From contig CAVXWP010000006.1 in assembly GCA_963765495.1 (NCBI GenBank), positions 128,001 to 192,000 of the forward strand: 64,000 nucleotides of DNA, written 5' to 3'. How positions within the stretch are numbered: the first letter of the stretch is position 1; each line of letters begins with the position of its first letter. Origin of the DNA: Blastocatellia bacterium (lineage in GTDB: Bacteria; Acidobacteriota; Blastocatellia; UBA7656). A program made the translations under genes and the position numbers. Under the pieces are notes generated by a model. It searched no databases, was not told the origin of the DNA, and was given only the letters and a program-made list of their open reading frames with translations. Below, piece after piece: positions 3,909-62,003 of the stretch.

Positions 3909-4661
3909 CTATCTGTTACGGTTTCGCCAGGAGGCTCCGAGATAATCTCTGTTCAAGCGACCTATGAAATCAAGGCTGATCTCTTTCGGGCAAACGGCCT
4001 CGCACGCGCCCGTAACAGAACAATTCCCAAAGCCTTCATCGTCCATAGCCTTGACCATGCCGAGCACGCGGAGGTCTTTTTCGGGCTTGCCTTGCGGCAG
4101 TATGTTCAGGTGCGAGGCCTTTGCCGCCACAAACAGCATTGCCGAGGCGTTCTTGCAGGCGGCAACGCACGCGCCGCAGCCAATACAGGCAGCCGCGTCC
4201 ATAGCCAGGTCGGCATCCACTTTCCCGACGGGGATTGTGTTTGCGTCGGGCGTGCCTCCGGTGGATACGGAGATAAACCCGCCCGCCTGAATCACGCGGT
4301 CAAACGCGCCGCGATTCACTACCAGGTCTTTGATGACGGGAAAGGGTTTTGCCCGCCACGGCTCGATCACCAGCGTATCTCCGTCTTTGAAACTTCGCAT
4401 GTGCAACTGACAGGTAGTCGTAGCGCCAAGCGGGCCGTGCGCCACCCCGTTTATCATCACGCCGCACGTTCCGCATATGCCTTCGCGGCAATCGTGATCA
4501 AAGGCTACGGGGTCTTCGCCGCGTTCGGTCAGCTCTTCATTGACCACGTCGAGCATCTCAAGGAAAGACATTTCCGGTATGATGTTTTTGGCTTTATATT
4601 CTACGAAGCGGCCCGGCGTGCTCGCGTTCTTCTGCCGCCAGATGCGTAAGGTCAGCTCCAT
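3909..4661 (-). CDS. sdhB: Succinate dehydrogenase/fumarate reductase iron-sulfur subunit (operon 1)
   Basis: [21 protein letters not shown] and [12 protein letters not shown] Fe-S motifs. Confidence 0.95.
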
Positions 4662-6574
4662 TATTTATAACTCCTTGTGGACATGTGGACTTCTTCGTAT
4701 TCAAGCGGTTCTTTGTGCAAAACGGGAGGATTATCTACACCCTGATACTCCCACGCGGCGACAAAAGAGAACTCTTCGTCATTGCGTTTGGCCTCACCGT
4801 CCGGCGTTTGATGCTCTTCGCGGAAATGGCCTCCGCAGGACTCGTCCCGCATAAGCGCATCGGTCGCGAGCAGTTCGGCAAATTCCAGGAAGTCTGCCAC
4901 GCGGCCCGCCTGCTCAAGCGCCGGGTTCAGTTCCTTATCCTCGCCCAGGATGTTTACATTCTCCCAGAATTCCTGTCTGAGCGCGGGAATCTGTTTCAGG
5001 ACTTCCTTTAATCCGGCCTCGTTTCGAGCCATCCCGACCTTTTCCCACATCAGTTTGCCAAGCTCGCGGTGAAAATCCGTGACTGTGCGCTTGCCCTTGA
5101 TCGAAAGAAATTTTCTGGTGCGCTCGGCCACCGTATCGGTTACCGCCTTGAATTCAGGATTATCCGCCGAGGGTTTGGGCTGTTTTGCGGATGCGAAGTA
5201 ATCGCCTATCGTGTAGGGCAGGATAAAATAGCCGTCGGCCAGTCCCTGCATCAATGCGCTCGCGCCCAGGCGATTCGCGCCGTGATCTGAAAAATTGGCT
5301 TCGCCTATAACGAAAAGGCCCGGCAGGTTGCTCATCAGATTGTAATCCACCCACAGCCCGCCCATCGTGTAGTGAATCGCCGGATAGATGCGCATAGGTA
5401 CTTTGTAAGCGTCTTCGGCCGTGATGCGTTCATACATTTCAAACAGGTTGCCGTAACGCTCGCGGATCACGTCTTCGCCCAGTCTCTTAATGGCGTCGGC
5501 GAAATCGAGATAGACGCCCCGGCCACCCGGCCCCACTCCCCGGCCTTCGTCGCAGACTTCCTTTGCGGAACGAGATGCGATGTCGCGCGGGGCGAGGTTG
5601 CCAAAGCTCGGATACTTTCTTTCGAGATAATAGTCGCGCTCGGCATCGGGAATCTGATTTGGAGGGCGCGTGTCTCCCTTCTTTTTCGGGACCCAGACGC
5701 GACCGTCGTTGCGAAGCGATTCCGACATCAATGTGAGCTTCGATTGATGATCGCCGCTTACGGGGATGCAGGTCGGGTGAATCTGCGTGTAGCAGGGGTT
5801 GGCAAAAAACGCGCCCTTCTTATATGCGCGATAGGCGGCCGTGACATTGCACCCCTTGGCATTGGTCGAAAGGAAATAGACGTTGCCGTACCCGCCCGTG
5901 GCAAGGACGACGGCATCGCCCGCGTGCGAAGCGATCTCGCCCGTAACGAGGTCGCGTGTGACTATGCCTTTTGCGTGGCCGTCGATGACGACGAGGTCGA
6001 GCATTTCGGTGCGCGGGTACATCTTCACCTTGCCGAGGCCGACCTGTCTTTCCAGCGCCTGATACGCGCCAAGCAATAATTGCTGACCCGTCTGTCCGCG
6101 CGCGTAAAAGGTTCGTGACACCTGCGCGCCGCCAAACGAGCGATTGGCAAGCAATCCGCCGTATTCGCGGGCAAAAGGGACTCCCTGAGCCACGCACTGA
6201 TCTATGATGTTCACGCTGACTTCGGCCAGACGATAGACGTTTGCCTCGCGCGAGCGGAAGTCGCCGCCTTTGATCGTGTCATAGAACAGGCGATAGACGC
6301 TGTCGCCGTCGTTTTGATAATTCTTGGCTGCGTTTATGCCGCCCTGCGCGGCTATCGAGTGCGCGCGCCGTGGGCTGTCTTGAAAGCAGAAGCATTTGAC
6401 GTTGTAGCCGAGTTCGGCAAGCGTGGCCGCGGCCGATGCGCCTGCAAGCCCTGAGCCTACGATTATCACGTCAAACTTGCGTTTGTTAGCCGGATTGACC
6501 AGCTTTATGTTCTGGCGATGCCTGCTCCATTTTTCCTGGACCGGGCCGGAAGGTATCTTGGAATCTAGTGTCAT
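4661..6574 (-). CDS. sdhA: Succinate dehydrogenase/fumarate reductase flavoprotein (operon 1, Bacteroidota/Actinobacteria-like type)
   Basis: [32 protein letters not shown] and [11 protein letters not shown] motifs. Confidence 0.95.
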
Positions 6575-6592
6575 GCTTATACCCGATTCGAG

Positions 6593-7315
6593 TTATTTGA
6601 CCAGCCCCGTCAAGACGGCCAGAGGGATGATCGAATTGCCTATAAAAATAATCAACGCGCTGATCTGGGCAAACCGTTTTATGACCGGCTCCCAGGCTTT
6701 ATTCCTGAGCCCCACGGATTGAAACATGCTCGTGAGCCCGTGACTCAGATGCAGACAAAGCAGCGCCATCGAAACTATGTAAAACGCAGAGACCCAGATG
6801 TTGGAAAATCCCTGAATCACCATGCGGTAAACATCGTGGCGTTCAAGTATAGGATCGGTGGCCGCCGCGCCGGAATTGATCGCCGCGTGAACCGGCTCTT
6901 TTAGCTGTAGGAGAGCCGGGTTGATCACGCCTACGGTGAAGTGCAGCAGATGATAAACGATAAAGACCAGCACGATGAGCCCGCTGATAAAGATGGTGCG
7001 CGAGGCGAAGCTTGCGCCCGAAGGTTTTTTCTCTTCGTACCCGATGGGCCGCGCGGCGCGATTCTCTTTCACAAGCAGGACGGCAGAGATGATGTGAAGC
7101 AAGGCTATGACAAACAATCCGAGTCGCGCCGTCCACAACAACCCCGGTTTCGATTTTAAGAACTCCGCGTAATCGTTTAGCGCCTTGGGGCCGATAAATA
7201 CCTGTAAATTGCCCAGCATGTGCACTACCACGAAGGCAAACAGCAAGAGGCCCGTTATGGCCATGACATACTTCTTCCCAAGGGAAGAACGATAGAGATT
7301 GGTTAGGATATTCAT
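6593..7315 (-). CDS. sdhC: Succinate dehydrogenase cytochrome b subunit (single 5-TM di-haem anchor, operon 1)
   Basis: SSLGKKYVMAITG, HMLGNL, HLLHF and HLSHG haem histidines; first gene of the operon. Confidence 0.92.
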   Translation of the reverse strand: MNILTNLYRSSLGKKYVMAITGLLLFAFVVVHMLGNLQVFIGPKALNDYAEFLKSKPGLLWTARLGLFVIALLHIISAVLLVKENRAARPIGYEEKKPSGASFASRTIFISGLIVLVFIVYHLLHFTVGVINPALLQLKEPVHAAINSGAAATDPILERHDVYRMVIQGFSNIWVSAFYIVSMALLCLHLSHGLTSMFQSVGLRNKAWEPVIKRFAQISALIIFIGNSIIPLAVLTGLVK

Positions 7316-11713: not shown

Positions 11714-12457
11714 CTATTTATTGAGCGCCGATAGTCGCGCGGAAAGACGCCCGCCTTCGTGGCAGCTTAAACAGGTGATGCCGCTCGATGCGGCTACCTT
11801 TGGATTCTCTTTCCATTTCTTTGCCACCGGCTCATAAGGAGTTCCGGCGAGCACTTCGATCATCTTGTCCAGATACATCGCAAGTTCTTCCTTGCGCCCG
11901 GTTCGCTCGGCCGATTGCGCAAGCCCGCCTAAAAGCTCACCTCGAATGTGCACGGGGAGGCGATCTAAGAATTTGGACTGCTGTTTCCAGAGCGCCAGAT
12001 ATGAGTCATAAGCCTGTGACCACGCGGAGGCGCGGTATTTCTCGGGCAAGCGGTCGGCGAAGACCGCGAAACTACCTCCGGTGACTGCCGCGACTCCGCC
12101 GCCATCGGGGTCAAGCCGGTGAGCCTCGGCAAAGAGGTCGAGCGCGCGGCGATAAGTCTGTTCGAACTCATCGTTTTGTTTGTTCTCGTAAGCGCGCACC
12201 GCGCGGTAGAGCGTAGCTCCTCCCTGCCAGGTCAGCAGATCGGCCTTTGCGTCGGGCCGTTTTTCCAGAAGCAACTGGATGTTCTTCTCGCCCCTTGTAA
12301 ATTTCTCCATATCATCTGCCAGAAAGCCCGCGAAGATGTCTTCGCGCACAAGCGTGTGAATCGTAAGCCGGGTGTCGGAAATCGGCGGGTCGGGTGACTG
12401 CGCCATCGCCACGGTCACAAACACTATCACGATAAGAAGTTTGCTGAATTTGAGCAT
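11714..12457 (-). CDS. Secreted helical protein with a C-terminal CxxCH (putative c-type haem)
   Basis: Signal peptide; CLSCH near the C-terminus; AGGAG SD. Confidence 0.6.
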   Translation of the reverse strand: MLKFSKLLIVIVFVTVAMAQSPDPPISDTRLTIHTLVREDIFAGFLADDMEKFTRGEKNIQLLLEKRPDAKADLLTWQGGATLYRAVRAYENKQNDEFEQTYRRALDLFAEAHRLDPDGGGVAAVTGGSFAVFADRLPEKYRASAWSQAYDSYLALWKQQSKFLDRLPVHIRGELLGGLAQSAERTGRKEELAMYLDKMIEVLAGTPYEPVAKKWKENPKVAASSGITCLSCHEGGRLSARLSALNK

Positions 12458-12851
12458 AGTTTGCGTCTCCTGAGTTAAAAACAGATTGCCGGTCAGTCTA
12501 ACCCCAATCTGATCTGAGAATCAATAAAGTAGCGTCATCATTGATCTGCTCTCGTGCTTGAGGCTATATGATTACGTCACGACCCGTGGGTTTGTTTCTT
12601 TCAAGTTTGAAATCTCGGATGAGCGTGGATGAGTGCGAGTGTGCTTTGCGTAAGGGCGGGCAACAGGTTCTCGCAAAGCCGCAAAGCCGCAAAGCATTTT
12701 CACGAGATTCAATTGCTCGGATAAATCGCTCGGCGGGCTTTTCGGATAAGCGCGTTGAAAGGCACCCGCCCTTTTGTTATCTTGAGTGGGCGACTCTGCT
12801 GGTCGTAAATATCGGAAACCTGCTCGCGCGATCTTTCAGGAGACTACTCTT

Positions 12852-13517
12852 ATGGCTATAAATTTTTCGGGCCATTTTGTGTTGCGCAAACTTCACCAGC
12901 TAACCGGAGTCTTGCCGCTCGGAATATTTCTCATCGAACACCTCTATACAAACTCGAAGGCGCTCGGGTCAATCGCGGCGGGTAAATCCGGCGAGCAGTT
13001 GTACAACCAATCCGTGGCCGATCTGCAATCAATTCCTTATATCATCTTCGTGGAAATACTGGGCATATTCGTGCCGCTCATCTATCACGCGGTCTACGGA
13101 CTTGTAATCACTTACGAAGGCCGCCCAAACGTAGGCGCTTACGGATACGGGCGCAACTGGATGTACTTCCTCCAGCGAGTGACGGGCGTGATACTGTTTG
13201 TCTTTATCACCTTTCACGTATTGAATTTCAGATTCGGACTTATCCCCAGACTGAATACCATTTCAGTCGCAGAGCACCCGGACATGGCCTACAGCATCGT
13301 GAGGGGCGAATTCTTTGATCCGGTGATACTGACCATCTACATTATAGGCATCACCTCGACCACTTATCATTTCGCCAACGGGCTGTGGTTATTTCTGGTT
13401 GACTGGGGCGTGGCCGTAGGCCAGCGCGCGCAACGATTGATCGGATATGCCTGCGCTGCAATAGGCGTGGCGCTCACTTTCGCAGGCATAAATGCGGCGC
13501 TCGCATTCATTCGGTAA
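12852..13517 (+). CDS. sdhC: Succinate dehydrogenase cytochrome b558 subunit (operon 2, Bacillus-like)
   Basis: LRKLHQLTG, EHLYTNS, YHAVYG, NWMYFLQRVTG and YHFANGLW, as in Bacillus SdhC; start after CAGGAG. Confidence 0.92.
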   Translation: MAINFSGHFVLRKLHQLTGVLPLGIFLIEHLYTNSKALGSIAAGKSGEQLYNQSVADLQSIPYIIFVEILGIFVPLIYHAVYGLVITYEGRPNVGAYGYGRNWMYFLQRVTGVILFVFITFHVLNFRFGLIPRLNTISVAEHPDMAYSIVRGEFFDPVILTIYIIGITSTTYHFANGLWLFLVDWGVAVGQRAQRLIGYACAAIGVALTFAGINAALAFIR

Positions 13518-13538
13518 TGGATAAAGACAGGTGGGAAG

Positions 13539-15440
13539 ATGGCAAAAGGTGAATTGAGAATCGCGGTCGTCGGAGGTGGACTTGCCGGGCTTATGACCGT
13601 CATCAAGATAGCCGAGCTTGGTCACAAGGTTGATCTGTTCTCGCTCGTCCCCGTCAGGCGGTCGCATTCGGTCTGCGCGCAGGGCGGCATCAACGGCGCG
13701 GTCAATACAAAAGGCGAAGGCGATTCTCCGTGGATTCATTTCGATGACACGATCTATGGCGGCGATTTTCTGGCAAATCAACCTCCCGTAAAAGCCATGT
13801 GCGAAATGGCTCCGGCAATCATCTATATGTTTGACCGCATGGGCGTGCCTTTCTCGCGCACGATGGAAGGGTTACTCGATTTCCGCAGATTCGGCGGAAC
13901 GAAATTCAATCGAACCGCCTTTGCGGGCGCATCGACCGGACAGCAATTGCTGTACGCGCTCGATGAACAGGTGCGCCGATACGAAGTTCAGGGGCTGGTG
14001 ACGAAGTACGAATGGTGGGAATTTTTGTCCGCGGTCCTCGACGATAATCAGGTATGCCGGGGGCTTACGGCGATGAACCTGCGCACGCTCGAAACAGCCT
14101 CTTTCGCCGCCGACGCGATAGTGATGGCCACGGGCGGTATAGGCTCGATCTTCGGCAAATCTACAAACTCAGTTATATGCACGGGGTCGGCTCAATCGGC
14201 CCTGTATCAGCAGGGCGTCAAGTACGCAAACGGCGAATTTATACAGGTGCATCCGACCGCGATACCGGGCGAAGACAAACTCCGATTGATGTCGGAATCG
14301 GCTCGCGGCGAAGGCGGGCGCGTGTGGGTTCCGCGCATTCAGGGCGACGAGCGCGAACCAAGATCGATTCCCGAATCCGAGCGATGGTATTTTCTGGAAG
14401 AGAAGTATCCCGGCTACGGCAATCTTGTGCCGCGCGACATCGCCACCCGCGAAATATTTCAGGTCTGCCTGGACGGGTACGGCATACGCGGGGGCCGAAT
14501 GGTCTATCTCGACCTGACGCACATCCCTACGGAAACGCTCGACCGCAAACTCGGAGCGATACTTGAAATCTACGAGAAATTCGTAGGCGTGGACCCTCGC
14601 TCAAACCCTATGATGATCTTCCCCGGGATGCACTACACGATGGGCGGCATCTGGGTTGATTACGATCAGATGACAAACGTACCGGGAGTATTCGCCGTGG
14701 GCGAATGCGACTACACGATTCACGGCGCGAATCGGCTGGGCGCAAATTCGCTGGTCAGTTGCGTGTACGCAGGCGTTGTGGCAGGGCCTGCCGTGGTCAG
14801 ATACGCCGAAGGAAACGGACGAGGTGAAACCTTAAACGGGCTGCACGAAAGCGAGGCCCATCGGCAGGCCGCGATCAATCAGGAACTGATGAACCGGCGG
14901 GGAGGCGAGAACGCTTATCTGCTGCACGAAGAGATGGGGCAGTGGATGACTGAAAACGTCACAGTCATTCGCTTCAATGACAGACTCGAACAGACGGACG
15001 CAAAACTACAGGAATTGATCGAGCGGTTCGATAATATAGACTTAAACGAGAATATTTACTGGGCCACGCAGGCGCTGCCGCACGCGCGCGAGCTTTACAA
15101 TATGCTGCATCTGGCTCGCGCAATCACGCGGGGGGCGCTTGGTCGCAACGAGTCTCGCGGCGCTCACTACAAGCCGGATTTCCCCGAGCGCAACGATGCG
15201 GAATTCTTAAAGACAACCATCGCAACCTTCACCGCAGAAGGGCCGGAACTCAGTTACGAGCCGGTGGATATTTCGCTCCTCCCTCCGCGAGCGCGGACAT
15301 ACGGCGAAGCAAAACAGGGGCCTGCGGTCTCTTCGGAGCAGGTCGCGCCAAATGATTTGCAGATCGAGCTTAAATACGAGCAGGAGCGCGAAGGGCGCGA
15401 GCATCCATTCGAGGACGCAAGCAAAAACGTCGAATCATAA
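13539..15440 (+). CDS. sdhA: Succinate dehydrogenase flavoprotein (operon 2, Bacillus-like)
   Basis: GGGLAG, RRSHSVCAQGGING, QVHPTAIPGEDKLRLMSESARGEGG and [11 protein letters not shown]. Confidence 0.95.
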   Translation: MAKGELRIAVVGGGLAGLMTVIKIAELGHKVDLFSLVPVRRSHSVCAQGGINGAVNTKGEGDSPWIHFDDTIYGGDFLANQPPVKAMCEMAPAIIYMFDRMGVPFSRTMEGLLDFRRFGGTKFNRTAFAGASTGQQLLYALDEQVRRYEVQGLVTKYEWWEFLSAVLDDNQVCRGLTAMNLRTLETASFAADAIVMATGGIGSIFGKSTNSVICTGSAQSALYQQGVKYANGEFIQVHPTAIPGEDKLRLMSESARGEGGRVWVPRIQGDEREPRSIPESERWYFLEEKYPGYGNLVPRDIATREIFQVCLDGYGIRGGRMVYLDLTHIPTETLDRKLGAILEIYEKFVGVDPRSNPMMIFPGMHYTMGGIWVDYDQMTNVPGVFAVGECDYTIHGANRLGANSLVSCVYAGVVAGPAVVRYAEGNGRGETLNGLHESEAHRQAAINQELMNRRGGENAYLLHEEMGQWMTENVTVIRFNDRLEQTDAKLQELIERFDNIDLNENIYWATQALPHARELYNMLHLARAITRGALGRNESRGAHYKPDFPERNDAEFLKTTIATFTAEGPELSYEPVDISLLPPRARTYGEAKQGPAVSSEQVAPNDLQIELKYEQEREGREHPFEDASKNVES

Positions 15441-15449
15441 GAGGAGAGT

Positions 15450-16196
15450 ATGGCAGGCACAATCAGGCTGAAGATCAGGCGACAGGACGGCGCAGGGACC
15501 GAGAGTTACTGGGAAGAGTTCGACGCTCCTTACCGCAGAGGCGTAAATGTACTGACCTGTTTGATGGACATTCAAAAGAATCCTGTGAATGCTCGTGGGC
15601 AAAAGACTACGGCTGTGGTGTGGGACTCGAACTGTCTGGAAGAGGTTTGCGGCGCGTGCTCTATGCTGATCAACGGGCGCGCAAGGCAAGGGTGTACGGC
15701 GCTCGTGGACCAACTGGATACCCCCATCACGCTTGAGCCCATGACTAAATTTCCAGTCATCCGCGATTTGATAGTTGACCGCTCCGTGATGTTTGAAAAC
15801 CTCAAGAAGGTGCACGCTTGGATAGACATAGACGGCACTTATGAACTGGGACCGGGGCCGCGCGTGGCACCCGAAACACAGGCGGCGCGTTACGACATGT
15901 CGCGCTGCATGACTTGCGGCGTGTGTCTGGAGGTCTGCCCGCAGGTCAACCCGCACTCGAAATTCATAGGTCCCGCGGCGCTCAATCAGGTGCGTCTGTT
16001 CAACGAGCACCCGACGGGCGAGATGCACAAAGACGCAAGATTGAATGCCATCATGCAGCCGGGCGGCATCACCGATTGCGGCAACGCGCAAAATTGCGTC
16101 AAGGCCTGTCCGAAAGAGATACCTCTGACCGATTCTATCGCCTACCTTTACCGCGAGACGACCTGGCACGGGTTGTTTGGCTGGCTCAAAAAATGA
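15450..16196 (+). CDS. sdhB: Succinate dehydrogenase iron-sulfur subunit (operon 2, Bacillus-like)
   Basis: NCLEEVCGAC, CMTCGVCLEVCP and CGNAQNCVKACP. Confidence 0.95.
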   Translation: MAGTIRLKIRRQDGAGTESYWEEFDAPYRRGVNVLTCLMDIQKNPVNARGQKTTAVVWDSNCLEEVCGACSMLINGRARQGCTALVDQLDTPITLEPMTKFPVIRDLIVDRSVMFENLKKVHAWIDIDGTYELGPGPRVAPETQAARYDMSRCMTCGVCLEVCPQVNPHSKFIGPAALNQVRLFNEHPTGEMHKDARLNAIMQPGGITDCGNAQNCVKACPKEIPLTDSIAYLYRETTWHGLFGWLKK

Positions 16197-25270: not shown

Positions 25271-25792
25271 ATGCTCAATTTTATCAAGAAACTCTTGCCT
25301 GACCCGGAGCAATTGCGCAGGGATTTGCAGCAGGGCGATGGTGGCGACCTCTTTAGGCGACGCGCCATCATAGGTTTGTCGCTATTTGGCATGGCCAACA
25401 TGGCGGCGGTCACTCTGTTGCAAAACGGCATGGTGAAACGTCTGCCGGAGTTGCCGCTCGATAGCTTCGATGCAAGGAAGGTCAACTTATCGCTGACTGC
25501 CTATCAATTTGGCGCGCCCGACGGCACGCTCGGGCTGGCGAGCCTCGCTCTCAACCTGCCGCTTGCGGCATTTGGCGGCTCTCATAGAGCGAACGAACAA
25601 TCGATGGTTCCGATTCTTGCGGCGGCCAAGGCTGCGCTCGATGCGGCTGCTGCGGGCTGGTTCTTCTACCACATGCCAGCGAAAGAGAAAGCCTGGTGTA
25701 GTTACTGCATTGCGGGCGCTGCGACAAATTTTGCGATCCTTGCGCTCGCGTGGCCGGAGGCGCGCAAGGCATTGAAATTGCTGAAAGAATAA
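25271..25792 (+). CDS. Vitamin K epoxide reductase (VKOR)-like membrane protein
   Basis: TM helices, S.AY.FG.PD motif and WCSYC CxxC near the C-terminus. Confidence 0.75.
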   Translation: MLNFIKKLLPDPEQLRRDLQQGDGGDLFRRRAIIGLSLFGMANMAAVTLLQNGMVKRLPELPLDSFDARKVNLSLTAYQFGAPDGTLGLASLALNLPLAAFGGSHRANEQSMVPILAAAKAALDAAAAGWFFYHMPAKEKAWCSYCIAGAATNFAILALAWPEARKALKLLKE

Positions 25793-25878
25793 GAGGGCGC
25801 AGATGGCCTGAAAACTTACGGCCATCAACCCTGTCGAGACCTTGTGAGACAGATCGAACAGATTTAACGGGGGGAATT

Positions 25879-26451
25879 ATGTTGTTTATACGCAAAAAAC
25901 GGGAAGTAAATGTCTGGAAGGGGCTGGCCGCCGGACTCGTCGCCGGGCTTGTGTCCAGTTATGCAATGAACGGGTTTCAGGCTCTCTGGAGCAAGCTGTC
26001 TGAAAACGGCAACGATTCCGAGGATCAGAAATCTTCAAAGCGAGAAGCAAAAAGCGAAGGAGCAAAAAACAAAGGAGCAAAGAGCGAAGAAGAGAGCGAA
26101 GACGCTACGGTGAAGACGGCCTCAGCCATATCTGAAAACGTCTTTGATCACAGATTGACAAAGAGCGAAAAGAAGGTAGCCGGTCCGGCGGTTCACTATT
26201 CATTCGGGACGGCGATGGGCGGATTTTACGGCGCGATGGCCGAGTTTGTGCCTGCTTTTACGACGGGGGCGGGCGCTCCGTTTGGCGCGGCCGTATGGGC
26301 TGCGGCGGATGAGGTGGCGCTGCCCGCACTGGGGTTGACGAAATCTCCAACCGAGTATCCGATCTCTAATCACGCGTACGCGCTCGCTTCACACATAGTT
26401 TATGGTGTGACGACTGATGCCGTACGCCGTCTCGTGCGCAGGGCGCTCTGA
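25879..26451 (+). CDS. DUF1440-like membrane protein
   Basis: GLAAGLVAG, VHYSFG, ADEVALPALGL and HIVYG. Confidence 0.75.
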   Translation: MLFIRKKREVNVWKGLAAGLVAGLVSSYAMNGFQALWSKLSENGNDSEDQKSSKREAKSEGAKNKGAKSEEESEDATVKTASAISENVFDHRLTKSEKKVAGPAVHYSFGTAMGGFYGAMAEFVPAFTTGAGAPFGAAVWAAADEVALPALGLTKSPTEYPISNHAYALASHIVYGVTTDAVRRLVRRAL

Positions 26452-26649
26452 TGACAGGGGCCGATTGTCTGCTTGTGAAGAAGAGATTGAATCGAGATGA
26501 GCAGGATCAGGGTAATAACAACCGAGTGAGGGGAAGCGGATCGGGCTAATTTGCGCCGATCCGCAAAAACACGCATGCGCGCATATGTCTCATCCCGTCC
26601 ATCTGCGGGCTATTGCCTGTTATGCTGATTCAACTGCACAGAAACACTT

Positions 26650-28974
26650 ATGACTGAAAGCCTCAGAAACTCTCTCGTACGTCTGCGTCCGGGCAATGAT
26701 GTTCTTTGCGTCAGCCAGAGCCGCACGGTCTTTGTCACCGAACGCGATGGCTTTATCGACGACGGAGAAGACCATGGATTGTTCGTGCATCAAACCCGTC
26801 TCCTTTCCAGGTATCGCTATCTGATAGACGGGAATCCGCCTCAGCCGGTCGCGCTTTCGAACGTCGAGCAGCATTCGTGGCTCGGGTATTACATAGCCTT
26901 GCCGCCCAAAATCGAATTGATGGAGGAGGATGAAGGCAGCGGTCAGATGAAGGCCGTTTCGGAACAGACGCTCGAATTGCGAGTCTCTCGCCTGGTTGGC
27001 GAGGGCGTCCACGAAGACATAGACCTGACCAACTTCAGCAGGCAGCCGACAACATTTCGGCTCGAAGTTGAAGCGGACGCGGATTTCCGGGACCAGATCG
27101 AAACAGGAGGCGAACGAAAACAGCACGGCACAATCACGCGGGCGTGGAAGAGCGCAGATATTGGCGTGTGGGAACTCGCCTTCGATTATGAAGCGGAGCA
27201 TCATTACAGTCATCAAGGAAACGAGGGCGTAGAGCGAATTCATCGTGGCCTCACGCTTCGCATAGAGCATGCCGATACGGTTCCTTTATACGAAAACGGG
27301 CGACTCAGCTTTCGCATACATCTTCCTCCGCTAGGCAGGTGGCATACCTGTATCAAGCTGATTCCCTTCATCGACGGCAAATTCATGCCGCCGCTTTACG
27401 GATGCCACGCCTTTGGCGGCACGCATAACGAGTATGACAGGCGTCGTAATATCTTCCTCGACGAAGCGACCATCTTTTCTACGCCCGCAAGCAACACGCT
27501 CGCAGGCGTTGTGATTGGCGCGCTCGAACAGGGGAAACGCGACCTGGCGGCGCTCCGGCTCTATGATCTCGATGTAGCGGAGCGCGAATGGATAATGGCG
27601 GCCGGGCTTCCGATCTATATCGCGCTCTTTGGCAGAGATGTGCTGACCGCTTCATGGCAATCGTCTACCGTGGGCACAGAGATGATGCGAGGCGCGCTCA
27701 GGGAGCTTGCCCTGTGGCAGGGTGATGAAATCAATGACTGGCGCGACGAGCAACCGGGTCGCATGCTCCACGAGGCGCATACCGGCCCGCTCGCCGTGCT
27801 GAATTACAATCCTCGCCGCCGCTACTATGGCTCGAATACTTCGGCATCCTTTTATCCCGTAGCCGTTTCGGAACTGTGGCACTGGACGGGCGACCGGGAT
27901 TTGATAGGCCCGCTAATCGAACCCGCGCTCAAGGCGCTTCGCTGGCTGGACGAATACGGTGATATCGACGGCGATGGTTTCTCCGAGTACAAGACGCGCT
28001 CCGAGCAGGGCGTCAAGCATCAGGGGTGGAAAGACTCGCCCGATGCCATAGTGTATGAAGACGGGCGACAGGTCGAACCGCCTCTGGGCACTTGCGAGGA
28101 GCAGGCATTCAAGTACGGGGCAAAATTCCGAATGTCGGAAGTCCTCTGGTGGATGGGCGACAGGGACGAGGCCCTACGGCTCTACAGAGAGGCCGCCGAA
28201 CTCAAGAAGCGATTCAACGAAACGTTCTGGATGGAAGATGAAGGATTCTTTGCAATGGGGCTTGACTGTGAAAACCGGCAGATCAAATCGATAGGCTCGA
28301 ATCCCGGCCATTGCCTGGCAGCAGCCATCGTGGACGAGTCGCTTGTCGAGAAGACGGCCGACCGATTGATGAAAGAAGACCTGTTTACAGGGTGGGGAAT
28401 AAGGACGCTCTCATCCAGACATCCGGCATTCAATCCATACAGCTATCACAGGGGTTCGGTGTGGCCGGTCGAGCAGGGGACGTTCGCGCTCGGATTTGCT
28501 CGGTATGGTCTGTATGAGCATCTGGAAAAGATATGCCGGGCGCAGTTTGAGGCCGCTGCCCTGTTTGATTTTCTCCGCCTGCCGGAACTCTTCAGCGGCC
28601 ATCAAAGAGACCGCGAGCATCCGTTCCCGGCCTTCTATCCGCAGGCCAACTCTCCACAGGCATGGTCGGCCTCGACGGTCTTCTGCCTGCTGCAAGCAAT
28701 GTTGAGCCTCTACCCTTACGCGCCGTTGAATATGCTGCTGGTCGATCCCCGCCTGCCGGAATGGCTGCCTGAGATCACGCTTCGCAATCTGCGGGTCGGA
28801 GATGCGGTCACAACTATTCGTTTCTATCGCAAGGAAGAGGGAACGAGCGATTACGAAATTTTAGACAAGCGCGGGTCGTTGCACGTACTCAGGCAACCAA
28901 GCCCGTGGTCATTGACGGCGAGCTTTGCCGAGCGCGCACGCGATGCGCTCGCAAGCCTGCTGCCGGGGAGATGA
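26650..28974 (+). CDS. Glycogen debranching / amylo-alpha-1,6-glucosidase-like protein
   Basis: ALFGRDVL, EQPGRMLHE, QGWKDS, YHRGSVWP and RLPELFSG. Confidence 0.88.
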   Translation: MTESLRNSLVRLRPGNDVLCVSQSRTVFVTERDGFIDDGEDHGLFVHQTRLLSRYRYLIDGNPPQPVALSNVEQHSWLGYYIALPPKIELMEEDEGSGQMKAVSEQTLELRVSRLVGEGVHEDIDLTNFSRQPTTFRLEVEADADFRDQIETGGERKQHGTITRAWKSADIGVWELAFDYEAEHHYSHQGNEGVERIHRGLTLRIEHADTVPLYENGRLSFRIHLPPLGRWHTCIKLIPFIDGKFMPPLYGCHAFGGTHNEYDRRRNIFLDEATIFSTPASNTLAGVVIGALEQGKRDLAALRLYDLDVAEREWIMAAGLPIYIALFGRDVLTASWQSSTVGTEMMRGALRELALWQGDEINDWRDEQPGRMLHEAHTGPLAVLNYNPRRRYYGSNTSASFYPVAVSELWHWTGDRDLIGPLIEPALKALRWLDEYGDIDGDGFSEYKTRSEQGVKHQGWKDSPDAIVYEDGRQVEPPLGTCEEQAFKYGAKFRMSEVLWWMGDRDEALRLYREAAELKKRFNETFWMEDEGFFAMGLDCENRQIKSIGSNPGHCLAAAIVDESLVEKTADRLMKEDLFTGWGIRTLSSRHPAFNPYSYHRGSVWPVEQGTFALGFARYGLYEHLEKICRAQFEAAALFDFLRLPELFSGHQRDREHPFPAFYPQANSPQAWSASTVFCLLQAMLSLYPYAPLNMLLVDPRLPEWLPEITLRNLRVGDAVTTIRFYRKEEGTSDYEILDKRGSLHVLRQPSPWSLTASFAERARDALASLLPGR

Positions 28975-29024
28975 AAATTGTAAACGTCAACTCATAACAA
29001 TTCATAAAGGGAGGGAAATGGAAC

Positions 29025-30077
29025 ATGAACTATTCAGATAAATCAGAAGTGGTTGTCGTAACCGGAGCGTCCGCAGGAGTCGGACGCGCAACGGTGAGGG
29101 CATTTGCAAAAGAGGGAGCCCGCATTGGGCTCGTCGCGCGCGGGCGCGAGGGTCTGGAAGGTGCGCGCAGGGAAGTCGAAGAGCTTGGAGGCAAGGCGCT
29201 CGTACTGCCTACTGACGTATCGGACGCCGCTCAGGTAGAGGCCGCCGCCCAGATGGTCGAAGAAGAATTCGGCCCAATCGACACGTGGGTCAACAATGCT
29301 ATGGTGTCGGTCTTTTCGCCTATAAAAGAGATGACCGCCGAGGAATTTAAACGCGTAACTGATGTTACGTATCTGGGCGTAGTCTATGGGACGCTCTCCG
29401 CCTTGCGGCGCATGCTCCCGCGCGACCGGGGGGTGATCATTCAGGTAGGCTCTGCGCTCGCCTATCGGGGCATACCACTGCAAGCGGCCTATTGCGGCGC
29501 AAAGCACGCCATTCAGGGGTTCGTCGATTCGTTGCGCACGGAGTTGCTTCACGACAACAGCCGGGTGAGAGTGACTATGGTGCAGATGCCCGCGCTCAAC
29601 ACGCCGCAATTCGGATGGGTCAAGTCGCGCCTCCCCAACAAGGCTCAGCCGGTCCCGCCTATTTTTCAGCCGGAAGTCGCAGCCGAAGCCATTCTTTATG
29701 CCGCTCATAATGACCGGCGCGAAATGTATATAGGCGTGCCCACGGTGAAGGCAGTCGTAGGCAACAAGATTGCGCCGGGATTTGCCGATCATGTGCTTGC
29801 AAGAAACGGCTATGAGTCTCAGCAAACCGACGAGCCGGAAGACCCGAACCGCCCCGATAATCTGTGGGAGCCGGTTCCGGGCGATCACGGGGCGCACGGC
29901 GATTTCGACACGCGAGCGCGCGAATGGAGTCCGCAACTCTGGGCCAGCACCCATCGCAATTTGCTGGCACTTGCAGGCGCGGGGCTTGCGGGTGCGGCTC
30001 TTGCAGTTTTCAAGAGTCTGAACGGCAACGGCAGGAAGAAAGGATTCGAACGCCTGCTCTCTTCGATCACAGGTTAA
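29025..30077 (+). CDS. SDR family oxidoreductase
   Basis: TGASAGVG, NNA and YCGAK (YxxxK). Confidence 0.92.
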   Translation: MNYSDKSEVVVVTGASAGVGRATVRAFAKEGARIGLVARGREGLEGARREVEELGGKALVLPTDVSDAAQVEAAAQMVEEEFGPIDTWVNNAMVSVFSPIKEMTAEEFKRVTDVTYLGVVYGTLSALRRMLPRDRGVIIQVGSALAYRGIPLQAAYCGAKHAIQGFVDSLRTELLHDNSRVRVTMVQMPALNTPQFGWVKSRLPNKAQPVPPIFQPEVAAEAILYAAHNDRREMYIGVPTVKAVVGNKIAPGFADHVLARNGYESQQTDEPEDPNRPDNLWEPVPGDHGAHGDFDTRAREWSPQLWASTHRNLLALAGAGLAGAALAVFKSLNGNGRKKGFERLLSSITG

Positions 30078-30102
30078 ACGGCAAATTACCGTCCTCATTT
30101 TC

Positions 30103-30118
30103 TGGCACACCGATTGAA
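30103..30118 (+). promoter_or_regulatory. Possible sigma54 promoter (-12 variant) of the rhodanese gene
   Basis: TGGCACACCGATTGAA: canonical -24 box, GA instead of GC at -12. Confidence 0.4.
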
Positions 30119-30216
30119 CTATATTAACCGTTCGGTCTGACGCCGAAAGACTGACTCGTTTCAGTGCGAGAAAGGGTCTGGAAGGCGCTCAGACTGTTCG
30201 GAAGGAGTATAGAAAC

Positions 30217-30594
30217 ATGACGGCGATCATTTCCAGAGATGAACTGAAAGAGAAGATAGACCGACGAGACAATTTTATTCTCGTCGAGACGCTTCCCGCG
30301 CAAACATACTTTCACGCGCACTTGCCCGGAGCGATAAATCTGCCTCCCGACAGGGTAAAGGAACTGGCTACGCAGGTTTTGCCCGACAAAGACGCCGAGA
30401 TCATAGTCTATTGCGCGAGTCCTAGCTGACACGCTTCGGAAAACGCCGCCCGTGAACTGGCGGATATGGGCTACCGAAACGTAAAGGATTATGCAGGAGG
30501 CAAGCAGGATTGGATAGATGCGGGGCTGCCGCTCGAAAGCCATCATCAACACGCTCACCACGCGAAGAGCAAAGAACAGAGAGCAAAGGGCTAA
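30217..30594 (+). CDS. Rhodanese-domain protein with in-frame UGA (probable selenoprotein, 125 aa)
   Basis: HLPGAINLP...IIVYCASPS-UGA(30427-30429)-HASENAARELADMGYRNVKDYAGGKQDWIDAGLP completes the rhodanese fold in the same frame; stop TAA at 30592-30594. Confidence 0.82.
30446..30463 (+). promoter_or_regulatory. Candidate bacterial SECIS hairpin
   Basis: CCGCC-CGTGAACT-GGCGG; loop begins 22 nt after UGA with G at loop position 2. Confidence 0.5.
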
Positions 30595-30670
30595 GAGCAG
30601 AAAGTTGTGTGTTCTTGGCCCTTACCATCTTGCCCTTAGCCCTTGTGCTTTGCCCTGAAAAGGAGACCTT

Positions 30671-31570
30671 ATGGCCTTCACGGAAGAGAATACCGTTGTC
30701 GTTAAAGACAAGATAGAGGAAGTAGAGCCTGAGACTACCCCCAAGCCCGCAAGCGAAGGCCCTGCTGTCGGCACGCGATTTACGGCCGATGAGATTTACG
30801 AGAACGTGCGTGTGGCCGCCGAAGAAGAGTTGCGGCGTCCGGCGGCGGCGCTATTCTGGTCAGCCATCGCGGCGGGTTTGATAATCGGTTTTAGCTTTTT
30901 TGCCGGAGCATATCTGGCCATGCTCGTGCCAGAGCATCTGGCGCACGCGGCGGCGGCCGCAGGTTATCCGCTCGGATTTATATTTGTGGTGCTGGCTCGC
31001 AATCAGCTTTTTACCGAAAACACACTTGAGCCGATAATACCTCTGCTCAATAAGCCCACGTGGAAAACCGTGCGGCAGTTGCTCTCATTGTGGGCAGTCG
31101 TGCTGGTAGGAAATCTGATCGGCGCTCTTATATTCGCCTGGGTTGCGGCGCGCACGCCGATGGTTGGTCCCGACCTCCGGCGCGCTCTTGAGCATCTGGC
31201 CGAGAGCGCAACATCGGGAGGCTTTATGGATACGGCTTATCGGTCCATCTTTGCGGGATGGTTGATAGCCCTTATGGCGTGGCTTGTTGCGTCTACGCGA
31301 TCGACAGGCGCGCAGGTTCTCCTGATATGGCTCACGACCGCCTCCATTTCCGCCTTCGGATTCCGGCATTCGATAGCCGGTTCGGTGGAAGCGTTTTTCA
31401 GAACGATAACCGGAACCGCCGCGTGGGGCGATATGATATTCGGGTTTCTGATACCGGCTGTGATCGGCAACATAATCGGCGGCGTGATCCTGGTCGCCCT
31501 GCTCAATCACGGACAGGTCCACGCCGGGCGCGCGGCAAAAGTTCTTGCGGGAACCTACGAGGACAATTGA
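30671..31570 (+). CDS. Formate/nitrite transporter (FNT, YfdC-like)
   Basis: GYPLGFIFVVL, QLFTENT, GNLIGA, HSIAGS and GNIIGG. Confidence 0.88.
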   Translation: MAFTEENTVVVKDKIEEVEPETTPKPASEGPAVGTRFTADEIYENVRVAAEEELRRPAAALFWSAIAAGLIIGFSFFAGAYLAMLVPEHLAHAAAAAGYPLGFIFVVLARNQLFTENTLEPIIPLLNKPTWKTVRQLLSLWAVVLVGNLIGALIFAWVAARTPMVGPDLRRALEHLAESATSGGFMDTAYRSIFAGWLIALMAWLVASTRSTGAQVLLIWLTTASISAFGFRHSIAGSVEAFFRTITGTAAWGDMIFGFLIPAVIGNIIGGVILVALLNHGQVHAGRAAKVLAGTYEDN

Positions 31571-60390: not shown

Positions 60391-60522
60391 TGATGCGTGA
60401 TGCGTGATGCGTGAAGAGTGATCCGTGATGCGTGATGCGTGACTATCAGGCAGTTGGCCGTTAATTGACAATTGCCTGTTTCACGCTTCACGAATCACGG
60501 ATCACGGATCACCCAGAATCAC
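60391..60522. repeat. Inverted heptamer arrays between convergent genes
   Basis: gatgcgtgatgcgtgatgcgtga...gatgcgtgatgcgtga ... tcacgcttcacgaatcacggatcacggatcac. Confidence 0.88.
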
Positions 60523-62003
60523 AAAATGCGATTCGGATCGCTCGTATCGGGTAGCTCCCCGTGATAGCCGAAAAGTTTTTGCAACACCCACACAAAGGCG
60601 CGCGATTGCTTGCGAATGTACCCCTGGTCTGCCGCTCGCCGGTTGCCCAGAACATAAGTCGGATAAGGGTGAATAGTGTCGGCGATCTTCCTTAAGCTGA
60701 TGCCGTTTCGCATGGCCAGGGCGTATTCGCCGATCATCTCGCCCGCGCTCGCTCCAAGTATGGTGACTCCGAAAATCCTGCCGCTGAACTTTTTCGCAAA
60801 GACTTTTATCCACCCTAAGATTTCGTTTTCGGTAATCGCCCGATCTATCTTTGAAAACGGAAATCTGTAGACTTCATACGAAATCCCCTTTCGCTTCAAC
60901 TCGTCTTCGCCCATCCCCACGTGCGCAAGCTCCGGGTCAGTGTAGGTGCACCACGTTATATGTCTGGAGTCGAGCGAAATCGGAAAGTGCAGCAGCGCGT
61001 TGCTCACGGCGGTCTTTGCCATGTGTTCGGCAAAATGGGTGAACTGAAATCTGCCCGCGACGTCTCCAGAGGCATAGATGTTTTTTGCCGACGTGCGGCA
61101 ATGATCGTCAACCGTTACCCCGCGCTTATCGTGATCGACCCCGGCTGCTTCCAGATTCAGACTGCCGACATCCGGCTTGCGGCCCGCTGAAATCAACACG
61201 GCATCCCCGTGTATCACGGATCGTTTGGCGGTCTTCTGATTTTCTATGGTGACGCTCAAGCCGCCGTTCTCTTTTTTAAGCTCCACGACTTTCGATTGCA
61301 AGAGGTATTGAATCCCTTCCGATGCCAGATGCTCTTTCAAAATGCCTGTAAGTTCCGAATCATCTTTTGGCAGGATTTTATCGGCCGTGTCTACGACTGA
61401 GACATCCGAGCCAAATCGCCGAAATGCCTGTGACATCTCGGTGCCGATGGGGCCGGAGCCGACTACGATCAGTTTTTTTGGAAGACGGGTTATGGAAAAG
61501 ATCGTTTCGTTTGTTAAATAATCGACCTCCTCGATGCTGTCAATCGGCGGAATTAGGGGGCTACTGCCGGTTGCGATGACAGAATATCTCGACGTGAGTT
61601 TTGAGTTTTTACCGTTTTCATCCGTAAGCTCTACGGTGTGCCGGTCCAGAAACCGCGCGCGGGCCGAGATGACTTTCACGCCGAGATTTTCGAATATCTC
61701 AGGCGCGTCGGCCTCCTTGTAAACGTGCTGCTGAACGCGGTGTATGTGCTCCATCACTCCGGCGAAATCGAATTCCGGCTGCCGGTTTTGTAATCCGTAT
61801 TTTGCCGCCGCGTTGAAATAATGGGCGACCTTTGCGGCTTTGAGGAGCGTCTTGCTCGGCACGCAGCCGTACCACGTGCAGTCGCCCCCCAATCGTTTGG
61901 GTTCGATCAGAGCGGTCTTCGCGCCGAAAGAAGCCGACATCCCGGAAGCCGTAAGCCCTGCCGCGCCTCCGCCGAGCACTACCATGTCGAAATCATATTT
62001 CAT
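60519..62003 (-). CDS. Pyridine nucleotide-disulfide oxidoreductase (Lpd/MerA-like)
   Basis: GGGAAG, GGDCTWYGCVPSK, GSGPIG, YTDPE and HPYPT. Confidence 0.88.
   Translation of the reverse strand: MKYDFDMVVLGGGAAGLTASGMSASFGAKTALIEPKRLGGDCTWYGCVPSKTLLKAAKVAHYFNAAAKYGLQNRQPEFDFAGVMEHIHRVQQHVYKEADAPEIFENLGVKVISARARFLDRHTVELTDENGKNSKLTSRYSVIATGSSPLIPPIDSIEEVDYLTNETIFSITRLPKKLIVVGSGPIGTEMSQAFRRFGSDVSVVDTADKILPKDDSELTGILKEHLASEGIQYLLQSKVVELKKENGGLSVTIENQKTAKRSVIHGDAVLISAGRKPDVGSLNLEAAGVDHDKRGVTVDDHCRTSAKNIYASGDVAGRFQFTHFAEHMAKTAVSNALLHFPISLDSRHITWCTYTDPELAHVGMGEDELKRKGISYEVYRFPFSKIDRAITENEILGWIKVFAKKFSGRIFGVTILGASAGEMIGEYALAMRNGISLRKIADTIHPYPTYVLGNRRAADQGYIRKQSRAFVWVLQKLFGYHGELPDTSDPNRIL

Follow-up and report, generated by a model that had tools for sequence, protein, structure and literature searches.

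A rhodanese reading frame in the 64,000-nt stretch of DNA analyzed here (the window) is interrupted by a single TGA, and we asked whether this codon ends a short protein or is read as selenocysteine (Sec). We conclude, with a probability of roughly 0.9, that this is a selenoprotein gene encoding a single-domain rhodanese with a C-x4-U-x2-S loop; decoding of the UGA at 30427 as Sec is, taken by itself, slightly surer still. A preliminary description made from the letters of this DNA had proposed Sec71, and the proposal is now carried by the conservation of the TGA in 80/80 related loci, by Cys at the same column in 72/120 homologs, by a covarying SECIS hairpin, by truncated database proteins, and by the Sec site of a known form of rhodanese selenoprotein (form 1).

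The rhodanese frame and its TGA

The frame that opens at ATG 30217 (+ strand) runs for 70 codons to TGA 30427–30429 and then for 54 more to TAA 30592–30594, giving 125 codons with one in-frame TGA in the context YCASPS*HAS (...EIIVYCASPS*HASENAARELADMGYRNVKDYAGGKQDWIDAGLPLESHHQHAHHAKSKEQRAKG*). The preliminary description had held that the ORF stops at 70 aa while the frame continues through the TGA into a rhodanese C terminus and a His-rich tail, and all of this is borne out. The ORF called with translation table 11 at 30217 is 70 aa long. The Pfam Rhodanese family (PF00581) matches the read-through protein at residues 7–101, across the TGA (60 bits, profile positions 2–101 of 102). This score against a gathering cutoff of 22.2, together with the rhodanese fold and the loop Cys, places the protein in PF00581, and the 70-aa piece alone covers just profile positions 2–70 (70/102 positions). 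An HxH motif is present in the tail of 72 of the 81 genes compared below and forms the last residues in 50 of them. The start codon is backed by a ribosome-binding site and by the 70-aa database pieces, and the protein has no apparent signal peptide. Promoter and terminator prediction at the gene gave no usable call. Coordinates are collected in Table 1.

Table 1. Features of the rhodanese locus (positions in the window)
Feature	Position	Strand	Remarks
Shine-Dalgarno-like AAGGAG	30202..30207	+	9 nt 5' of the ATG; read from the sequence
Gene for a single-domain rhodanese of 125 aa (TGA as Sec)	30217..30594	+	Pfam, AlphaFold2, Foldseek
Cys66 (TGC), opens the active-site loop	30412..30414	+	Cys in 81/81 TGA genes
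In-frame TGA, predicted Sec71 (C-x4-U-x2-S loop)	30427..30429	+	TGA in 80/80 related loci
Bacterial SECIS-type hairpin	30446..30463	+	stem of 5 bp (most relatives: 6 bp); loop CGUGAACU
His-rich tail HHQHAHH	30541..30561	+	C-terminal HxH kept in relatives
Long imperfect palindrome, overlaps the gene end	30562..30653	.	encodes the non-conserved extension KSKEQRAKG

The palindrome consists of inverted repeats and folds better than expected (z −3.33; an equally good fold in one of 200 shuffles). It is built of short purine-rich units, and one 17-nt arm has no second match in the 64-kb window at up to three mismatches.

Conservation of the TGA in related genomes

A scan of GTDB genomes matched at least 605 stretches, of which at least 482 were confirmed, and we kept the best 80 loci. 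All are from metagenome-assembled genomes (MAGs), with three genomes contributing two loci each. Going by their titles, 76 belong to Acidobacteriota (38 of them under the name Pyrinomonadaceae), two to Gemmatimonadota, and one each to Chthoniobacterales and Actinomycetota. These relatives point to an acidobacterial origin of the window. Although the tblastn ranking penalizes a stop, column 71 is TGA and column 66 is Cys in every one of these best 80 loci, at 60%–76% identity. When the window is included (81 genes), the frame stays open for at least 37 codons past the TGA in all cases and ends after exactly 41 residues past the Sec position in 50; UxxS is found at the Sec site in all 81. Mean pairwise identity among these genes is 0.80 downstream from the TGA versus 0.72 upstream. 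The in-frame TGA is thus conserved with the frame continuing, as in a selenoprotein gene, and the conserved TGA, open frame and higher downstream identity together exclude a chance nonsense mutation.

Homologous proteins

Searching with the read-through protein returned 1722 related proteins. Among the best 120 of these, column 71 holds Cys in 72, Ser in 27, Trp in 14, Pro in three, Arg in two, and Leu in one, the window's own truncated entry making up the rest. Cys at the column of the TGA, expected among homologs of a selenoprotein, is therefore the commonest residue in the matches listed, in line with the earlier remark that homologs often read YCxxxxC. Positions 66 and 71 covary in the 120 listed homologs (C/C 68, S/S 26, C/W 13). 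A profile search against 50%-identity representatives gave 26802 matches at an E-value of 0.001, with C/C in 52 of the 68 short proteins examined, and a search for longer forms gave 10 matches among 355 candidates, with Cys at the column in all five displayed. A well-supported clade of close homologs (e.g., P0041, P0051, P0059; 26 of the 120 listed matches) has Ser at both loop positions; this form thus lacks Cys and may be non-catalytic. The protein tree was built quickly, from 111 columns, and is too coarse to tell whether Sec arose once.

The 70-aa piece used as query returned 1314 relatives, and the best 120 of these, 119 besides the window's own, all end exactly at YCxxxx; two of them carry NCBI names, as rhodanese-like proteins of Pyrinomonadaceae. 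Standard annotation has indeed split this gene, as the preliminary description had anticipated: the database copies listed either stop short after 70 aa or have Trp instead, so that no fewer than 119 other sequence clusters appear to be mis-annotated. A U residue was absent from every stored protein sequence that we inspected.

A SECIS hairpin supported by covariation

The stem CCGCC (30446–30450)/GGCGG (30459–30463) closes an 8-nt loop (CGTGAACT) that has G at its second position, followed by U. The loop is separated from the UGA by 21 nt and starts at +22, exactly where the preliminary description had placed it. The hairpin (loop of 8, stem of 5, CGU, spacing of 21, −9.0 kcal/mol) falls within the bSECIS criteria given in the legend to Figure 2 of PMC13188914: a loop of 3–9 nt, a stem of 4–16 bp, a spacing of 16–37 nt, G[G/U] at the loop start, and a minimum free energy (MFE) of at most −7.5. 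The MFE is −7.5 or lower in 80 of the 81 genes. Taken alone, the hairpin is ordinary (z −0.65; 41 of 200 shuffles fold equally well), with z ranging from −0.65 to +0.37 over five folding spans, and a loose SECIS filter is passed by 361 of the 2165 TGA triplets in the window. The hairpin signal is significant only across relatives and not in the window alone.

Over the 81 genes, the consensus is a 6-bp stem with a CG(U/G) loop, 21 nt past the UGA; the stem in the window is one pair shorter. The prediction for the window also contains a longer lower stem, which the consensus of the relatives does not show. RNAalifold, run unprompted on the ungapped 81-row alignment, returned one helix, pairing columns 19–24 with 33–38. 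In this stem, 98.8% of cells are paired and 11 are compensatory, a level reached by 0/500 shuffles, with the shuffle tests inflated by the relatedness of the 81 genes; slid registers of the alignment pair just 17%–75%. Columns 21 and 36 read C-G in 61 genes, U-G in 11, U-A in nine, and C-A in none, and on a tree from which the SECIS was left out the U-A state takes six changes, only two of them forced by the starred branches.

Codon choice points in the same direction. Ala78 is encoded by GCC in 79/81 genes, and Arg79 by CGT (75) or CGG (six) in all 81, versus 54 of 144 Arg codons elsewhere. This choice at Arg79 reproduces the G[G/U] loop consensus of PMC13188914. The SECIS signature is present in 79/81 genes, whereas 2000 synonymous resamplings gave it in 7.4 genes on average and in 17 at most. 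Cys-coded homologs from plasmids paired at only two to four of six positions in the SECIS register in five of six loci (the sixth had no motif match and was left out), and the SECIS signature is missing from these five, but they are a weak control because they are 41%–51% identical and have a different protein sequence at the hairpin.

Sec machinery and gene neighborhood

Neither sel genes nor tRNA-Sec were found in the 64-kb window, which is part of a genome, using ARAGORN, Rfam, and a motif scan for SelA, SelB, and SelD; ARAGORN found no tRNA and Rfam no match there at all. Sec machinery genes need not be linked to a selenoprotein gene. The flanks of the 80 related loci amount to 1.14 Mb and contain selA at L021 (492 bits vs. 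a cutoff of 268) and a canonical tRNA-Sec at L038 (65 bits vs. 47), both in genomes other than that of the window. Neither was detected in the flanks of the remaining 78 loci, and SelB and SelD motifs were found in none of the 80 flanks, so that co-occurrence with Sec machinery was seen at 2/80 loci only. The motif scan, which looked for SelA, SelB, SelD, SenB, and MnmH in the window and the 80 loci, detected only SelA at L021 and SenB at L002, and it is insensitive because it missed SenB at L003 and L005.

Several neighbors recur among the 80 loci. A senA–senB pair, both genes above cutoff, lies directly downstream from the rhodanese in three Blastocatellia/Pyrinomonadaceae MAGs (L002:10343–12694, L003:10345–12707, L005:6449–8797), followed at L003 by a permease with weak similarity to SaoE. 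An ArsM-like methyltransferase is directly downstream in eight loci, with both of the two scanned falling below cutoffs; at L038, it is accompanied by an arsenosugar-type cluster. In seven loci, the main gene is directly followed by a second single-domain rhodanese whose CxU loop includes an in-frame TGA, with a hairpin beyond it (L023:10426–10758, also L040, L043, L052, L072, L073, and L078). This second rhodanese scores 97 bits with the rhodanese_LYCAU model (cutoff of 115), and the two genes are probably a tandem pair of selenoproteins. Near the tRNA-Sec and the arsenosugar-type cluster of L038, an AhpD-like ORF (12158–12553, − strand) stops at a TGA in a CxxU context, with the frame running on for ∼96 codons; it is a probable AhpD-like selenoprotein. 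A scan of flank ORFs for Cys/TGA pairs gave three matches in apparently spurious frames and none in the window.

In the window, the rhodanese gene is flanked by an SDR gene upstream and a gene for a formate/nitrite-family transporter downstream. They belong to a co-directional run (25271–31570, + strand) that reads VKOR-like protein, DUF1440 protein, glycogen-debranching-type enzyme, SDR, rhodanese, transporter. A DUF1440-like gene is present in seven of the 80 related loci. Since the neighborhoods of the 80 loci are mostly variable, they constrain function weakly.

Alternative readings of the TGA

The gene could be a nonsense pseudogene, or encode a genuine 70-aa protein ending at the TGA: database proteins do end at that residue, and TGA is the normal stop of many window genes. 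However, TGA is the internal stop in 81/81 genes, with no TAA or TAG among them, whereas the same genes terminate with TGA in 37 cases, TAA in 26, and TAG in 18. The half downstream from the TGA is also the better conserved one, and a 70-aa piece would be left without the last third of the fold, which makes this reading extremely improbable. We give next to no credence to UGA being read as Trp (code 4), as in the 14 database homologs with Trp at column 71 among the best 120, even though these include most of the closest. Rows with Trp are scattered among TGA rows on the quick tree (13 changes for 14 rows, with 143 of 500 shuffles as low), and two of the Trp proteins match TGA loci closely (P0019 and L064 at 98% identity, P0014 and L074 at 93%), from which we infer that the Trp proteins are likely products of a TGA misread as Trp. 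Thirteen of the 14 sit on contigs shorter than 1.9 kb, and gene callers can choose code 4 on short contigs. Among the 81 genes, moreover, 37 use TGA to terminate, and none has TGG at column 71.

A suppressor-type tRNA (selC* tRNA-Cys or an allo-tRNA) might instead insert Cys or Ser, which are the natural residues at column 71. An opal-reading selC* tRNA-Cys has been described, as have possible nonsense-suppressor allo-tRNAs in Acidobacteria (PMC5389517), yet the passages of that paper on selC* place it in anaerobic Firmicutes, Thermodesulfobacteria, Nitrospirae, and Proteobacteria and not in Acidobacteria. With a canonical tRNA-Sec and selA on related loci, and a hairpin that fits the Sec consensus, we consider this very unlikely. 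There is a small chance, somewhat greater than for a suppressor tRNA, that the family is one of genuine selenoproteins while the copy in the genome of the window is silent, having been acquired by transfer or having outlived the Sec machinery. The variable neighborhood, the copies in other phyla (four of the best 80 loci), the shortened stem, the tail altered by the palindrome, and the lack of sel genes in the window fit such a history, but the gene retains an intact frame, Cys66, ribosome-binding site, and SECIS core. Overall, the hidden selenoprotein gene is real and well supported.

Relation to known rhodaneses and selenoproteins

Rhodanese-like selenoproteins have been reported before, as the preliminary description stated. 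Table 1 of PMC13188914 gives five forms (UxxS, UxxG, CxU, UxxG, and UxxxxU), and the form 1 representative, WP_010941598.1 (PF00581, UxxS), reads YCGGVTUVLS in the deep-Sep supplement (PMC12013277). Compared by eye rather than by alignment, this sequence and YCASPSUHAS of the window share a YC-x4-U-x2-S site with Sec at the same position, and the Sec site itself is therefore already known. The representative and six other form 1 sequences from the supplement are ∼250 to 480 aa long and carry additional rhodanese-like sequence as well as a leader or extension at the N terminus; the window protein has no such multi-domain architecture with a leader, and its subfamily consists of one leaderless domain of 112–125 aa with an HxH tail, mostly in Acidobacteriota. 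At its Sec site, the protein works as form 1 does; its architecture and host range differ. The subfamily also has E-T-L-P where the consensus of PspE-type rhodaneses is D-x-R.

This stand-alone, single-domain subfamily of Acidobacteriota appears to be undescribed. BSepDB may already hold members under form 1, because, according to its description (PMC13326102), 64,762 genomes, including that of L001, were searched with known representatives. Our literature search found no paper on selenocysteine in Pyrinomonadaceae, a rhodanese CxxxxC disulfide, or the locus tag GSU0930, and a search for Acidobacteria with selenocysteine, selenoprotein, or rhodanese returned only PMC1794560.

No NCBIfam model (June 2026) reaches its cutoff for the window protein or for three relatives. 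The best match is TsoB (NF045694; rhodanese/DsbD fusion-like, UxxxxU, form 5), at 55 bits over profile positions 45–171 of 572, and the five-residue spacing is common to TsoB and the window loop. This score is far from the cutoff of 805, and the window protein lacks the DsbD-like part and has a single Sec, the first of the two positions being Cys; with the three relatives scoring 45–46 bits, none of these proteins belongs to TsoB. The rhodanese_LYCAU family (NF041203; CxU, form 3) is likewise a single-domain rhodanese selenoprotein, but the window protein scores 52 bits against its cutoff of 115, and Sec lies two residues past the Cys in that family versus five here.

Fold and proposed mechanism

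An AlphaFold2 model with Cys in place of Sec has a rhodanese fold (mean pLDDT 84, pTM 0.75), with the loop at residues 66–72 between a strand (61–65) and a helix (73–83). The top Foldseek matches are rhodanese domains, the best being 6mxv and Bacillus halodurans BH2092 (PDB 3nhv, 3o3w). BH2092 is a solved single rhodanese domain whose YC-x4-C loop has the same length (TM ∼0.77); it differs in being Cys-only and ∼30% identical, and its PDB entries give no function. The single-domain thiosulfate sulfurtransferases PspE and GlpE share the fold and the position of the catalytic Cys, but their loop is two residues shorter, without a second Cys or Sec, and the window protein is below the curated cutoffs. 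In alignments, Cys66 falls on the loop Cys of both PspE (2jtq) and BH2092 (3o3w/3nhv). In canonical rhodaneses, the loop Cys is the persulfide position, and Cys66 therefore occupies that position. Judging from the sequence, Cys66 and Sec71 may form a functional pair within one loop.

We propose that SelB with Sec-tRNA would bind the SECIS hairpin 21 nt downstream, and UGA 30427 would be recoded as Sec to yield the 125-aa single-domain rhodanese. Cys66, at the position canonical for rhodaneses, would then accept sulfane sulfur or selenium, Sec71 would resolve the Cys66 adduct through a Cys–Sec selenenylsulfide, and a thioredoxin-type partner would re-reduce it, in a sulfur- or selenium-handling role that may be arsenic-linked. 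We give this scheme of uptake, resolution, and re-reduction even odds. Re-reduction by a thioredoxin-type partner is consistent with the existence of Cys homologs fused to ResA-like redoxin domains (P0242, P0245) and with the TsoB fusion.

A more speculative reading, which we consider possible but unlikely, casts the stand-alone CxxxxU rhodanese as a protein dedicated to carrying selenium in the cytoplasm of soil Acidobacteriota. Selenium held on its Cys/Sec loop would pass to SelD or SenA/SenB; the SenA and SenB genes that adjoin the rhodanese in 3/80 loci encode selenoneine enzymes. The in vivo selenium donor is described as incompletely elucidated in PMC13188914. If the carrier reading were true, this protein would be a testable candidate for that donor and a very common unannotated selenoprotein of soils.

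The gene, which is common in soil Acidobacteria, would add a widespread selenoprotein to the Acidobacteriota, for which a small selenoproteome is on record: three families with four proteins in Table 2 of PMC1794560, and three selenoprotein genes in Occallatibacter (PMC12013277). It presents a known Sec site on just one domain and exists naturally in Sec, Cys, and Ser forms, and so offers a simple model for studying the role of a second Cys or Sec in a rhodanese loop.

Elsewhere in the window, a pyridine nucleotide-disulfide oxidoreductase gene (60519–62003, − strand) scores below all curated cutoffs listed (best PRK06370-type, 480 vs. 620), and L038 carries a gene resembling it. The window also holds what we take, from N-terminal sequences, to be two separate succinate dehydrogenase/fumarate reductase-like operons (3909–7315, − strand; 12786–16196, + strand).
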